Positions 58,161 to 64,000 of a stretch of DNA of 64,000 bases are shown in pieces. Source of the stretch: Escherichia coli (lineage in GTDB: Bacteria; Pseudomonadota; Gammaproteobacteria; Enterobacterales; Enterobacteriaceae). The notes under the pieces were generated by a model. That model was not told where the DNA came from. It made no database searches and saw only the letters and a list, made by a program, of their open reading frames with translations. The position numbers and the translations under genes were made by a program. The stretch lies in NCBI RefSeq assembly GCF_003018255.1, contig NZ_CP027440.1; one strand, written 5' to 3'. How positions within the stretch are numbered: the first letter of the stretch is position 1; every line of letters starts with the position of its first letter.

Positions 58161-58399
58161 CTGCGCTAGCGCAGGTAGTACATTTATAAATAAAGGGTGA
58201 GCGGGGCGGTTGTCAACGATGGGGTCATGCGGATTTTTCATCCACTCCTGGCGGTCAGTAGTTCAGCTAATAAATGCTTCACTGCGCTAAGGGTTTACAC
58301 TCAACATTACGCTAACGGCACTAAAACCATCACATTTTTCTGTGACTGGCGCTACAATCTTCCAAAGTCACAATTCTCAAAATCAGAAGAGTATTGCTA

Positions 58400-60049
58400 A
58401 TGAAAAACATCAATCCAACGCAGACCGCTGCCTGGCAGGCACTACAGAAACACTTCGATGAAATGAAAGACGTTACGATCGCCGATCTTTTTGCTAAAGA
58501 CGGCGATCGTTTTTCTAAGTTCTCCGCAACCTTCGACGATCAGATGCTGGTGGATTACTCCAAAAACCGCATCACTGAAGAGACGCTGGCGAAATTACAA
58601 GATCTGGCGAAAGAGTGCGATCTGGCGGGCGCGATTAAGTCGATGTTCTCTGGCGAGAAGATCAACCGCACTGAAAACCGCGCCGTGCTGCACGTAGCGC
58701 TGCGTAACCGTAGCAATACCCCGATTTTGGTTGATGGCAAAGACGTAATGCCGGAAGTCAACGCGGTGCTGGAGAAGATGAAAACCTTCTCGGAAGCGAT
58801 TATCTCCGGTGAGTGGAAGGGTTATACCGGCAAAGCAATCACTGACGTAGTGAACATCGGGATCGGCGGTTCTGACCTCGGCCCGTACATGGTGACCGAA
58901 GCACTGCGTCCGTACAAAAATCACCTGAACATGCACTTTGTTTCTAACGTCGATGGGACTCACATCGCGGAAGTGCTGAAAAAAGTAAACCCGGAAACCA
59001 CGCTGTTCCTGGTAGCATCTAAAACCTTCACCACTCAGGAAACCATGACCAACGCCCATAGTGCGCGTGACTGGTTCCTGAAAGCGGCTGGTGATGAAAA
59101 ACACGTTGCGAAACACTTTGCGGCGCTTTCCACCAATGCCAAAGCCGTTGGCGAGTTTGGTATTGATACTGCCAACATGTTCGAGTTCTGGGACTGGGTT
59201 GGCGGCCGTTACTCTTTGTGGTCAGCAATTGGCCTGTCGATTGTTCTCTCCATCGGCTTTGATAATTTTGTTGAACTGCTTTCTGGCGCACACGCGATGG
59301 ACAAGCATTTCTCCACCACGCCTGCCGAGAAAAACCTGCCTGTCTTGCTGGCGCTGATTGGCATCTGGTACAACAATTTCTTTGGCGCGGAAACTGAAGC
59401 GATTCTGCCGTATGACCAGTATATGCACCGTTTCGCGGCGTACTTCCAGCAGGGCAATATGGAGTCCAACGGTAAGTACGTTGACCGTAACGGTAACGTC
59501 GTGGATTACCAGACTGGCCCGATTATCTGGGGTGAACCCGGCACTAACGGTCAGCACGCGTTCTACCAGCTGATCCACCAGGGAACCAAAATGGTACCGT
59601 GCGATTTCATCGCCCCGGCTATCACCCATAACCCGCTCTCTGATCATCACCAGAAACTGCTGTCTAACTTCTTTGCTCAGACCGAAGCGCTGGCGTTTGG
59701 TAAATCCCGCGAAGTGGTTGAGCAGGAATATCGTGATCAGGGTAAAGATCCGGCAACGCTTGACTACGTGGTGCCGTTCAAAGTGTTCGAAGGTAACCGC
59801 CCGACCAACTCTATCCTGCTGCGCGAAATCACTCCGTTCAGCCTGGGTGCGTTGATTGCGCTGTATGAGCACAAAATCTTTACTCAGGGCGTGATCCTGA
59901 ACATCTTCACCTTCGACCAGTGGGGCGTGGAGCTGGGTAAACAACTGGCGAACCGTATTCTGCCAGAGCTGAAAGATGATAAAGAAATCAGCAGCCACGA
60001 TAGCTCGACCAATGGTCTGATTAACCGCTATAAAGCGTGGCGCGGTTAA
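58400..60049 (+). CDS. pgi: Glucose-6-phosphate isomerase
   Basis: 549-aa product from [19 protein letters not shown]. Confidence 0.97.
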
Positions 60050-60062
60050 TCATTGTCGATAT

Positions 60063-60140
60063 GTAGGCCGGATAAGGCGTTCACGCCGCATCCGGCAACC
60101 GATGCCTGATGCGACGCGGTCGCGTCTTATCAGGCCTACA
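60063..60140. repeat. REP/BIME element downstream of pgi
   Basis: gtaggccggataaggcgttcacgccgcatccggcaa...gcctgatgcgacgc...gcgtcttatcaggcctaca. Confidence 0.6.
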
Positions 60141-60206
60141 GGTCGATGCCGATATGTACATCGTATTCGGCAATTAATACATAGTACGATTGATTAAATA
60201 GCCTTA

Positions 60207-60240
60207 AAAACAATGCCGACTATAAGTCGGCATTGTTTTA
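60207..60240. terminator. Hairpin terminator (A-run / 14-bp stem / T-run; potentially bidirectional)
   Basis: aaaacaatgccgac-tataa-gtcggcattgtttt. Confidence 0.6.
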
Positions 60241-60546
60241 TCAGATAAATCCTCTTGTCTGTCATTTAACGAAAATCATACCGTGAGGTTAATCCTAAAA
60301 TAGATTTTTAATCGTGATTGATTTCGGAAAATACGCAGAGTAATTACTTTTTATTTTATTTTAACTTCATGATTTTTAATCTTATTTATATATAAGTCAA
60401 AGCTTATATTTGATATTCATTCCAATTGTCCTAAAACTCCATCACTAATTCCCTGCGCCGTAATTCGCATGCTTTAGTTGTGTATACTCGATCCCGCCCG
60501 AAATGTTTTGGGTAAATCTCCATTCATTCAATGAAGGGAAATTGTT

Positions 60547-60789
60547 ATGAAAAAAGTTCTGTATGGCATTTTTGCCATATCTGCGCTTGCGGCGACTTCT
60601 GCGTGGGCTGCACCTGTACAGGTGGGCGAAGCGGCAGGATCGGCAGCAACGTCGGTTTCGGCGGGTAGTTCCTCCGCGACCAGCGTCAGCACCGTAAGCT
60701 CGGCGGTGGGTGTCGCGCTCGCGGCAACCGGTGGCGGTGATGGTTCTAATACCGGGACCACCACAACCACGACCACCAGTACCCAGTAA
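60547..60789 (+). CDS. yjbE: Small secreted Ser/Thr/Ala-rich protein YjbE
   Basis: 80-aa ORF with signal peptide and low-complexity tail ending [12 protein letters not shown]; first gene of yjbEFGH. Confidence 0.85.
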
Positions 60790-60903
60790 TAAAGTATGTA
60801 TCCCCAAAATAATTCGAGTCATCGCATCTGAAGCTTGAAGTATGAAGGGGATTAACCATAACCACACTCCGGTGTGGTTATTCTGCCCCTCTGGAGAAGA
60901 GTC

Positions 60904-61542
60904 GTGAAGCGACCTGCACTCATTCTTATCTGCCTGCTATTACAGGCCTGTTCAGCCACGACTAAAGAGCTGGGCAATTCACTATGGGACAGTCTGTTCG
61001 GTACGCCAGGCGTACAGCTGACGGACGATGATATTCAAAATATGCCCTACGCCAGCCAGTACATGCAGCTTAATGGCGGGCCGCAGTTATTTGTGGTGCT
61101 GGCCTTCGCTGAAGACGGACAACAAAAATGGGTCACTCAGGATCAGGCCACCCTTGTCACACAACATGGTCGTCTGGTGAAGACTTTGCTTGGCGGCGAC
61201 AACCTGATTGAAGTGAATAACCTTGCCGCCGACCCGCTGATTAAACCCGCACAAATCATTGATGGTGCAACCTGGACGCGCACGATGGGCTGGACCGAGT
61301 ACCAGCAGGTACGCTACGCCACCGCGCGCTCAGTCTTCAAATGGAATGGCACCGATACCGTCAAAGTCGGCAGCGATGAAACCCCGGTTCGCGTGCTGGA
61401 CGAAGAAGTCTTCACTGACCAGGCGCGCTGGCATAACCGCTATTGGATCGACAGCGAAGGGCAAATTCGCCAGTCGGAACAGTATCTCGGCGCGGATTAC
61501 TTCCCGGTGAAAACCACCCTCATCAAGGCGGCAAAACAATGA
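60904..61542 (+). CDS. yjbF: Lipoprotein YjbF
   Basis: GTG start giving MKRPALILICLLLQAC (lipobox LQAC); 212 aa. Confidence 0.85.
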   Translation: MKRPALILICLLLQACSATTKELGNSLWDSLFGTPGVQLTDDDIQNMPYASQYMQLNGGPQLFVVLAFAEDGQQKWVTQDQATLVTQHGRLVKTLLGGDNLIEVNNLAADPLIKPAQIIDGATWTRTMGWTEYQQVRYATARSVFKWNGTDTVKVGSDETPVRVLDEEVFTDQARWHNRYWIDSEGQIRQSEQYLGADYFPVKTTLIKAAKQ

Positions 61543-62276
61543 TTAAACAAACTATTGTCGCGTTGCTTTTGAGTGCGGGGGCGTCATCAGTCTTCGCGGC
61601 GGGAACCGTCAAGGTGTTCAGCAATGGCAGCAGTGAGGCCAAAACGCTGACGGGCGCAGAGCATTTAATCGATCTGGTAGGCCAACCGCGGCTGGCAAAC
61701 AGCTGGTGGCCCGGAGCGGTGATTAGCGAAGAGCTGGCCACGGCGGCTGCATTGCGTCAGCAGCAGGCGTTGCTGACACGGCTGGCAGAACTGGCTGCAG
61801 ATTCCAGCGCTGACGATGCCGCTGCGATTAACGCCTTACGCCAGCAAATTCAGGCGTTGAAGGTGACGGGCAGGCAAAAAATCAATCTTGATCCTGATAT
61901 CGTCCGCGTTGCCGAACGCGGTAACCCGCCGTTGCAGGGCAACTACACGCTGTGGGTCGGAACGCCGCCGTCCACGGTCACGTTGTTCGGGCTTATCAGT
62001 CGTCCTGGCAAGCAGTCATTCACTCCAGGTCGCGACGTGGCGAGCTATCTCTCTGACCAGAGCCTGCTCAGCGGTGCGGATCGCAGCTACGCGTGGGTGG
62101 TTTACCCGGACGGACGCACGCAAAAAGCGCCGGTGGCTTATTGGAACAAGCGTCACGTAGAGCCGATGCCCGGCAGCATTATTTATGTTGGCCTCGCGGA
62201 CTCCGTCTGGAGTGAGACACCTGATGCCCTTAACGCCGACATTCTTCAGACTCTGACGCAGCGGATACCCCAATAA
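61539..62276 (+). CDS. yjbG: Periplasmic protein YjbG
   Basis: Start [20 protein letters not shown] (signal peptide) overlapping yjbF stop (ATGA); 245 aa. Confidence 0.85.
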
Positions 62277-64000
62277 TGAAAAAAAGACATCTGCTTAGCT
62301 TACTGGCGCTGGGCATTAGCACAGCTTGCTACGGCGAAACATATCCTGCGCCCATTGGTCCGTCGCAATCGGATTTCGGTGGCGTAGGATTATTACAAAC
62401 GCCCACCGCGCGCATGGCGCGGGAAGGGGAGCTGAGCCTGAACTATCGCGATAACGATCAGTACCGTTATTACTCAGCTTCAGTGCAACTCTTCCCGTGG
62501 CTGGAAACAACGCTGCGCTATACCGATGTGCGCACCCGGCAGTACAGCAGCGTCGAAGCGTTCTCTGGTGATCAAACGTATAAAGATAAAGCCTTCGATC
62601 TCAAACTGCGTTTGTGGGAAGAGAGTTACTGGCTGCCGCAAGTGGCGGTTGGTGCGCGGGATATCGGCGGTACGGGGCTGTTCGATGCGGAATATCTTGT
62701 CGCCAGCAAAGCCTGGGGGCCATTCGATTTTACGCTCGGCCTGGGCTGGGGATATCTGGGCACCAGCGGTAATGTGAAAAATCCGCTCTGTTCGGCCAGT
62801 GACAAATATTGCTATCGCGATAACAGCTACAAACAAGCGGGATCTATCGACGGCAGCCAGATGTTCCACGGTCCGGCCTCACTGTTTGGCGGCGTGGAAT
62901 ACCAGACGCCCTGGCAACCGCTGCGCCTGAAACTGGAGTATGAAGGCAATAATTATCAGCAGGATTTTGCCGGTAAGCTGGAGCAAAAAAGTAAGTTTAA
63001 CGTCGGGGCGATTTATCGCGTTACCGATTGGGCCGACGTTAACCTTAGCTATGAACGTGGCAACACTTTTATGTTTGGCGTCACGCTGCGCACCAACTTT
63101 AACGATCTGCGCCCGTCCTACAACGATAACGCCCGCCCGCAATATCAACCGCAACCACAGGATGCCATTTTGCAGCATTCGGTGGTGGCGAATCAGTTAA
63201 CGCTGTTGAAATACAACGCCGGACTGGCCGATCCGCAGATCCAGACGAAAGGCGATACGCTGTATGTCACCGGCGAGCAGGTGAAATATCGTGATTCGCG
63301 TGAAGGGATCATCCGTGCTAATCGGATCGTGATGAACGATCTGCCGGATGGGATCAAAACGATCCGCATTACGGAAAATCGCCTTAACATGCCGCAGGTG
63401 ACGACGGAAACCGATGTCGCCAGCCTGAAAAATCATCTCGGCGGAGAGCCGTTGGGCCACGAAACGACGCTGGCGCAAAAACGCGTCGAGCCAGTGGTTC
63501 CGCAGTCCACCGAGCAGGGCTGGTATATCGACAAATCACGCTTTGATTTCCATATCGATCCGGTGCTGAACCAGTCGGTCGGTGGCCCGGAAAACTTTTA
63601 CATGTATCAGCTGGGCGTGATGGGAACGGCGGATTTGTGGCTGACGGACCATCTGCTGACCACCGGCAGCCTGTTTGCTAACCTTGCCAACAACTACGAC
63701 AAGTTTAACTACACTAATCCACCGCAGGACTCGCACTTACCGCGCGTTCGTACCCATGTGCGCGAGTATGTGCAGAACGATGTCTATGTGAATAACCTGC
63801 AAGCCAACTACTTCCAGCATCTGGGCAACGGCTTCTACGGTCAGGTCTACGGAGGTTATCTCGAAACCATGTTTGGCGGTGCGGGGGCAGAAGTGTTGTA
63901 TCGCCCGCTGGACAGCAACTGGGCGTTTGGTGTGGATGCCAACTACGTTAAACAGCGCGACTGGCGTAGTGCAAAAGATATGATGAAATTCACCGACTAC
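62276..64000 (+). CDS. yjbH: Outer-membrane lipoprotein YjbH, 5' part (ORF continues beyond window end)
   Basis: Start [18 protein letters not shown] (lipobox) overlapping yjbG stop; open reading frame runs to nt 64000 without stop. Confidence 0.9.

Follow-up and report, generated by a model that had tools for sequence, protein, structure and literature searches.

The yjbE gene lies at positions 60547 to 60789 on the plus strand of the 64-kb window, the term used here for the whole stretch of DNA that was analysed. Based on the list of open reading frames, a match to Pfam family PF11106 and the RefSeq annotation, it consists of an ATG start, 80 codons and a TAA stop. The gene pgi was found upstream in the same list of reading frames (58394-60049), and the interval between the two (60050-60546, plus strand) is an AT-rich intergenic and regulatory region in which the GC content falls to 0.275. 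Downstream, on the plus strand, are yjbF (60904-61542, with the RefSeq start), yjbG (61539-62276) and yjbH (62276-64000, incomplete because the window ends there). Their products were identified as a GfcB-like lipoprotein with the lipobox LLQAC (YjbF; PF11102 at 9e-63), a GfcC-like periplasmic protein (YjbG; PF20616 and PF06251, the families of the N- and C-terminal GfcC domains) and a GfcD-like outer-membrane protein (YjbH; PF06082 at 2e-211, positions 1-543 of 658). Paralogues of known structure exist for YjbF (PDB 2IN5, YmcC/GfcB, 1e-42) and YjbG (PDB 3P42, 2e-54), and a sequence search of the PDB with YjbH gave no match. YjbH and GfcD have been predicted to be two-barrel outer-membrane proteins with a FapF-like N-barrel and a C-barrel like that of PgaA, the PNAG porin; FapF transports amyloid subunits, and the match of the YjbH N-barrel to it was obtained by fold recognition (PMC9603273). 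The literature describes yjbEFGH, the operon of Ferrieres et al. (2007, Microbiology 153:1070), as Rcs-activated, induced by stress and osmotic conditions, and tied to an uncharacterised exopolysaccharide other than colanic acid.

The assignment of the first gene of this cassette is straightforward. The Pfam HMM of PF11106 (YjbE) matched over its entire length (positions 1-79 of 79) with 113.6 bits and an E-value of 5e-33, a score which exceeds the gathering cut-off of 27.9. The encoded protein is identical to YjbE of K-12 (WP_000757333.1), the DNA differing by three synonymous changes, so that the protein of the window represents the founding member of the family in the same pgi-yjbEFGH context. 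The further characters of the family are also present: yjbE stands first in a pgi-adjacent yjbE-yjbF-yjbG-yjbH cassette, and its product of about 80 residues carries an N-terminal signal peptide (by rules and conservation) and a Thr-rich C-terminus. RefSeq annotates a yjbE coding sequence in 5,420 of 5,426 complete E. coli genomes. The gene is thus already known and annotated, and the observation that started this work is accurate and ordinary; as a re-description of an annotated E. coli gene it is of little import. What is added here are modest details, namely a T7 run fixed by selection, rare recurrent alleles of plus or minus two codons, a conserved hairpin and orphan paralogues.

Homologues of YjbE were collected by exhaustive HMMER searching, which was preferred since a word-indexed search returned mostly frameshifted or partial fragments. 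The family is small: at 50% identity, 1.84 billion proteins yielded no more than 29 representatives, and those that carry a name all belong to the Enterobacterales (Erwinia, Kosakonia and Winslowiella). Among the matches listed, the gene order pgi-yjbE-yjbF-yjbG-yjbH is kept in 12 other Enterobacteriaceae species, and it is also found in Winslowiella. Within 6 kb of several YjbE-family genes of Erwinia and Kosakonia no yjbFGH genes were detected; these are orphan copies, and the linkage of yjbE to the yjbFGH machinery is therefore not obligatory. The 12 species among the matches listed and E. coli gave a set of 13 for comparison, the genera including Enterobacter, Citrobacter, Pseudocitrobacter, Siccibacter and Superficieibacter, together with a MAG. 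Across this set the variable sites of yjbE number 24, 20 and 74 at the first, second and third codon positions, which marks the frame as genuinely coding. Two antisense open reading frames (60445-60867 and 60528-60776) were rejected on the same codon-position pattern.

Residues 1-21 (60547-60609, plus strand) have the layout of a signal peptide: the MKK start supplies two Lys, a hydrophobic core of 13 residues follows, and the region closes with TSAWA, with Ala at -3 and -1 and the predicted cut before AP (AWA|AP). A rule-based scan of the N-terminus found neither a lipobox Cys nor a twin-Arg motif. The A-x-A|(A/D)P junction is kept in all family members, even where the residues before it differ, and the AlphaFold2 (AF2) model places a helix at residues 3-16. 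These features fit a Sec-type pre-protein with predicted cleavage at AWA|AP by signal peptidase I.

The mature part would have 59 residues, of which 88% are Ala, Ser, Gly, Val or Thr (13 Thr, 12 Ser, 11 Ala, 9 Gly and 7 Val). It holds one Asp and one Glu and is devoid of Lys, Arg, His, aromatic residues and Cys. By composition an N-terminal low-complexity region of Ala, Ser, Gly, Thr and Val was delimited at residues 22-49 (60610-60693, plus strand); it includes the conserved GEAAG motif, and G27, A30, G31 and A34 do not vary across the family alignment. A second hydropathy peak corresponds to a moderately hydrophobic Gly/Ala/Val/Leu segment at residues 50-61 (60694-60729, plus strand), with a Kyte-Doolittle value of 2.0 in an 11-residue window and of only 1.2 in a 19-residue window; in the Erwinia and Kosakonia homologues and in GfcA this segment is longer and more hydrophobic. 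The GGGDGSNTG hinge comes next (residues 62-70; 60730-60756, plus strand); it is invariant in the 13 species despite synonymous codon changes and nearly so in distant homologues. Then follow the seven Thr of the T7 run (60757-60777, plus strand) and the C-terminal Ser-Thr-Gln with the stop codon (60778-60789, plus strand). S79 and T80 are invariant across species, and the last residue is Gln or Arg in other genera. Inspection by eye for internal repeats gave nothing beyond a duplicated ATSVS, and a PDB sequence search with the YjbE profile gave no meaningful match. The AF2 model, built from a 15-sequence alignment, has a mean pLDDT of 55, with values below 50 at residues 19-26 and 31-46; a low-confidence helix spans residues 43-61 over the Gly/Ala/Val/Leu segment, and everything else apart from the signal-peptide helix is coil. 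The mature protein is accordingly predicted to be a low-complexity, largely disordered polypeptide.

The original prediction had placed an 80-residue reading frame ending in a Thr run at 60547-60789, and its position and content were confirmed exactly. Its naming of the product as YjbE is borne out by the end-to-end PF11106 match and the RefSeq annotation, and the proposed link to yjbEFGH and exopolysaccharide agrees with the Pfam families of the neighbours and with the literature. The signal peptide it called is supported by the n/h/c-region rules and by the family-wide A-x-A|(A/D)P junction, while its description of a low-complexity, intrinsically disordered product fits both the composition and the low pLDDT of the model. 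Its likening of the product to O-glycosylation targets or matrix components stays speculative; an idea of this kind has been voiced, also as speculation, for the paralogue GfcA (PMC8592465).

The T7 run is encoded by ACC followed by the hexamers ACCACA, ACCACG and ACCACC, and then by AGT ACC CAG TAA. As the three hexamers are not identical, the DNA is a short and imperfect hexanucleotide array, and the longest perfect ACC repeat within it is two units. Among all six-frame open reading frames of at least 60 residues in the window it is the sole run of four or more Thr, and a T7 arose in 38 of 200,000 shuffles of the composition of mature YjbE itself. A chance feature is excluded.

Residues 54-79 are invariant in the 12 other Enterobacteriaceae species among the matches listed, and all seven Thr codons vary synonymously across the 13 species. 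Since the peptide stays invariant while its Thr codons drift, the tail is a selected peptide motif and not a contingency repeat. On this comparison of sequences, protein-level purifying selection acts strongly on the C-terminal third of YjbE, the exact T7 length included, throughout the Enterobacteriaceae, and the most constrained part of the protein is the T7 tail with the GGGDGSNTG hinge before it. Further afield, NTGTTTTTTT is still present in many of the 50%-identity representatives (Erwinia and other genera), and other distant homologues have T5 to T8 or tails interrupted by Ser, Ala or Asn. Judging from these alignments, the length of the tail drifts over long evolutionary distances only.

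Length variation within E. coli was counted by megablast over the 5,420 complete genomes with yjbE. The 107-nt query, from a T9 haplotype, carried about 40 nt of flank both before and after the repeat, 28 nt of which lie beyond the stop codon; a query from a second T9 haplotype gave identical totals. The standard T7 length was found in about 5,317 genomes (98.1%), a T9 allele (+6 nt) in 85 (1.6%) and a T5 allele (-6 nt) in 18 (0.3%), so that 103 of the 5,420 (1.9%) depart from the standard, always by two codons. The T9 protein has 82 residues through an extra ACCACA (e.g. MRSN346638, WP_021575443.1), and the T5 protein has 78 through the loss of one hexamer (e.g. NCTC9966, WP_000757332.1). Of the 85 T9 genomes, 54 share one exact type (many are named ST361 or 361), 28 have a K-12-like type and three a third type. 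In an alignment of ten alleles, T9 occurred on three SNP backgrounds with two hexamer compositions, and T5 on three backgrounds, each with its own hexamer composition. With T9 and T5 each present on at least three haplotypes, slippage evidently recurs and seldom persists: the coding of the run as three ACCACN units permits an occasional slip of 6 nt in either direction and has produced T9 and T5 alleles several times independently. Disrupted alleles are rare and include an IS1 inside yjbE in EC25, a 1-nt deletion in UTME-6 and, in one genome (FCI56), a 2-nt deletion inside the Thr run. The suggestion that the Thr run may vary in length between strains was therefore right insofar as T5 and T9 variants exist; as a description of the locus it holds only marginally, these variants being rare (103 of 5,420) and T7 being strictly conserved across 13 species, the reverse of what a hypervariable repeat would show. 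Likewise, the proposed alignment of yjbE across E. coli genomes revealed a sequence that is not invariant, and 98.1% of the genomes nevertheless share one run length.

The DNA flanking yjbE was examined for regulatory elements. A consensus scan of the plus strand of the pgi-yjbE region found no promoter-like site. The best match to an RcsAB box upstream of yjbE (60284-60297) has three mismatches, and over the whole window 10 RcsAB-box-like matches were counted against 4.7 expected by chance, which is not significant. In the yjbE-yjbF spacer a hairpin, ATAACCACAC-TCCG-GTGTGGTTAT, was located at 60858-60881 on the plus strand, with a stem of 10 bp and a loop of 4 nt; the RNA fold of the spacer has an energy of -36.3 kcal/mol (z = -3.4). 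The stem recurs unchanged, with a T-rich stretch behind it, in all 13 of the other loci inspected, which take in every genus covered, and in Winslowiella six T follow it. Because the stem never varies across the loci examined, it yields no covariation in its support. The E. coli hairpin does not pass a strict terminator scan and has no proper U-tract. PMC8208086, citing Ferrieres 2007, reports yjbE mRNA to be more abundant than yjbFGH mRNA. We infer that the hairpin is a partial terminator or a 3' stabiliser, and it probably raises the level of the yjbE transcript over that of yjbFGH, as would suit a product needed in stoichiometric excess. In either capacity it would give YjbE such an excess, and it may decouple the expression of yjbE from that of yjbFGH.

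The closest distinct relative of YjbE is GfcA (YmcD), the Thr-rich first product, 101 residues long, of the group 4 capsule operon gfcABCDE-etp-etk. Like yjbE, gfcA sits upstream of genes for GfcB, GfcC and GfcD paralogues. The layout of the protein is also similar, with a signal peptide (AFA|AP), a polar low-complexity region, a Gly/Ala/Val hydrophobic stretch and, at the C-terminus, an S-GDG-G..NT motif and a TTTSTTR tail. Unlike YjbE, GfcA is longer and has 30% Thr, concentrated in its N-terminal part, and the gfc operon, unlike yjbEFGH, includes wza/wzb/wzc paralogues. The locus under study is pgi-yjbEFGH, the gfc operon lying elsewhere in K-12. The mature parts of YjbE and GfcA align collinearly by Smith-Waterman, at z = 2.4-3.3 against shuffles that preserve composition; the PF11106 model does not recognise GfcA, a BLASTP comparison of the two proteins is not significant (E = 65), and hhalign gives a probability of 95% over the signal peptide only. 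In statistical terms these alignments no more than suggest that YjbE and GfcA are homologous. In 2024 GfcA and GfcD were still described as 'entirely uncharacterized' (PMC11494523).

The best explanation of these observations, to which we assign a probability of roughly 0.85, is that yjbE heads the yjbEFGH operon, which adjoins pgi and is induced by Rcs and by osmotic stress, and encodes a Sec-exported, disordered product with a selected T7-S-T tail. Beyond this, mature YjbE may be an unfolded periplasmic client or cargo of YjbF (a LolA-like lipoprotein), YjbG and the double-barrel protein YjbH. Made in excess, it would act with these three in the production or retention of exopolysaccharide, and the conserved Thr tail would be its functional end. 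This proposal of a client acting jointly with YjbF, YjbG and YjbH is put forward tentatively, at somewhat less than even odds. In an AF2 model of a YjbF-(GGGGS)6-YjbE fusion YjbF was folded and YjbE was left undocked at a pLDDT of 22-36, so that a contact between YjbE and YjbF is without computational support; the cargo idea is weakened by this result, uninformative as the fusion model itself is, and by the orphan yjbE paralogues away from yjbFGH. A search of the accessible literature found no experiments on the localisation, processing or modification of YjbE.

Other readings of the locus were weighed against this one. The frame could be a mere leader or spurious, the true function of the region being a regulatory RNA for yjbFGH, and the very small size and low complexity of the product, the long antisense frames, the AT-rich regulatory setting, the sRNA families annotated upstream and the hairpin downstream all accord with this. 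It is nonetheless scarcely credible and is ruled out by the substitution pattern: changes are biased to third positions, blocks of the peptide are invariant, and the gene belongs to a conserved Pfam family which includes orphan copies and has a canonical signal peptide. A strain-variable contingency or phase-variable repeat, which would diversify a surface or matrix property, is very improbable. The tandem hexamers in coding DNA, the repeated origin of T5 and T9 beside T7 (at least three haplotypes each) and the T5-T8 or interrupted runs of distant homologues do recall the trinucleotide or hexanucleotide contingency repeats of bacterial surface-protein genes, where in-frame variants of one unit more or less also recur. 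In yjbE, however, a long perfect tract is missing, the array being short, imperfect and of three units; strain differences are infrequent (85 T9 and 18 T5 of 5,420); variants of 6 nt stay in frame and preserve the protein, so that no on/off switching by frameshift results; and a T7 peptide that is fixed across genera over drifting codons points to selection on the peptide and not on mutable DNA.

Three further readings concern the fate of the exported protein. The Gly/Ala/Val/Leu segment could be a stop-transfer helix, making YjbE a single-pass inner-membrane protein with a cytoplasmic Thr tail. This would agree with the database name of GfcA ('threonine-rich inner membrane protein'), with the AF2 helix at residues 43-61, with the hydrophobic stretches of 20-30 residues in homologues and GfcA, and with the Arg or Lys at the end of many homologues. 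We regard it as quite unlikely, as the segment of E. coli and its close relatives is short, weak on the 19-residue scale and rich in Ser, Thr and Gly, no positive charges flank its C-terminal side and the E. coli tail is without a basic residue. It is decidedly unlikely that YjbE is a secreted matrix or amyloid-like subunit which leaves by way of YjbH and its FapF-like N-barrel and takes no part in exporting polysaccharide. The disordered composition rich in Ala, Ser, Gly, Thr and Val resembles that of functional-amyloid subunits, the N-barrel of YjbH resembles FapF by fold recognition (PMC9603273), and the excess of yjbE transcripts with a hairpin 3' of the gene is as in major-subunit genes. 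As in curli (csgA, CsgEFG) and Pseudomonas Fap (fapC, FapF), the gene for a small or low-complexity Sec-exported product has as neighbours the genes for an outer-membrane barrel and for accessory periplasmic proteins or lipoproteins. YjbE differs in being very short and in having no sequence similarity to CsgA or FapC, none of their imperfect strand-turn repeats as judged by eye, and not the Asn/Gln residues typical of them; it forms no known fibres, the literature gave no fibre or Congo-red experiment tied to YjbE itself, and the reported operon phenotypes are polysaccharide phenotypes. The resemblance to curli and Fap is one of functional analogy only, and membership is not claimed. Finally, YjbE could, like GfcA, be an O-linked carrier of polysaccharide on Ser and Thr, exported via YjbH/GfcD, which anchors or primes the exopolysaccharide as the core of a 'proteoglycan'. 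The conserved Thr-rich C-terminal tail and the still higher Thr content of GfcA would suit such a role, and the group 4 capsule has no known anchor. Larson et al. raised, as speculation, a possible O-antigen modification of the Ser/Thr-rich GfcA and its export through GfcD (PMC8592465), and in a published model GfcD exports an anchored polysaccharide (PMC11494523). Against it, yjbEFGH lacks the glycosyltransferase or O-oligosaccharyltransferase that would be expected alongside an O-glycoprotein (a Pfam search of yjbF, yjbG and yjbH found no glycosyltransferase or Wzy_C-type domain), and mucin-like acceptor domains usually tolerate changes in length while T7 is fixed. E. coli K-12 is not known to have a general O-glycosylation system. 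The carrier role is thus unlikely, and the same applies to the Thr tail as a putative site of glycan attachment.

Returning to YjbE as an exported, disordered product with a selected tail, it and GfcA are the sole components of yjbEFGH and gfcABCD without a structure, a localisation or an assigned role. The natural T5 and T9 alleles, the constraint on T7 and the hinge, and the hairpin sharpen the design of experiments on them. As a long shot, mini-proteins of the YjbE/GfcA type may be exported clients of YjbH/GfcD whose tail putatively O-links polysaccharide or captures it non-covalently. If this were true, the yjbEFGH exopolysaccharide and the group 4 capsule anchor would be a small proteoglycan-like conjugate, and the rare T5 and T9 alleles would represent naturally occurring versions of this acceptor that differ in length.

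The intergenic region between pgi and yjbE was searched for known RNA families, and two Rfam matches scored above the gathering threshold. A REP/BIME-type element, naRNA4 (RF02564; 79.5 bits), lies directly 3' of pgi at window 60066-60136 on the plus strand, while the enterobacterial small RNA family STnc430 (RF02053; 72.8 bits) was matched on the opposite, minus strand at 60202-60351, within an AT-rich stretch (GC 0.275) upstream of yjbE. Two long open reading frames run antisense to yjbE, encoding 140 aa (60445-60867, minus strand) and 82 aa (60528-60776, minus strand). Their length is explained by the low-complexity, GC-rich and stop-poor codons of yjbE, and both were ruled out as genes because the substitution pattern favours the plus-strand frame only.

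Natural pseudogenes of yjbE were identified in three strains. In EC25 the gene is split by an IS1A insertion, in UTME-6 a single nucleotide is deleted at codon 26, and in FCI56 two nucleotides are deleted within the threonine codon array. Laboratory evolution likewise gave IS1 insertions in or adjoining yjbE (PMC8117528).

Orphan genes of the YjbE family were found in Erwinia, Kosakonia and one metagenome contig (loci L013, L014, L015/L016, L029 and L031), with no yjbF, yjbG or yjbH detected within 6 kb of them. The Kosakonia copies adjoin a divergently transcribed gene for a 188-aa GerE-family regulator, and one of the Erwinia copies is adjoined by phage-tail-like genes.

Downstream of yjbE, the interval from the stop codon to a conserved hairpin (window 60790-60857) contains approximately 57 additional nucleotides in E. 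coli which are missing in the other genera examined. This segment folds into a CCCC...GGGG stem of its own and includes a sub-threshold isrH-like match at 60800-60852. A further insertion of 72 nucleotides, which we take to resemble an ERIC/IRU repeat, is present in the same interval in some E. coli strains (317 and 2013C-4974; loci L007 and L010).

The hairpin itself, ATAACCACAC-N4-GTGTGGTTAT followed by a T-rich tail, occupies 60858-60881 on the plus strand in the spacer between yjbE and yjbF. Its 3' flank contains the GTG at 60874 which mechanical ORF calling assigned as the start of yjbF, whereas RefSeq places the start at the GTG at 60904 (both plus strand); comparable in-frame starts lying further upstream also occur in other genera. 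Comparison of the loci revealed that the hairpin is kept across all genera examined, and it yields no covariation evidence since the stem is invariant. This element probably functions as a partial terminator or as a stabiliser of the mRNA, which would account for the excess of yjbE mRNA.
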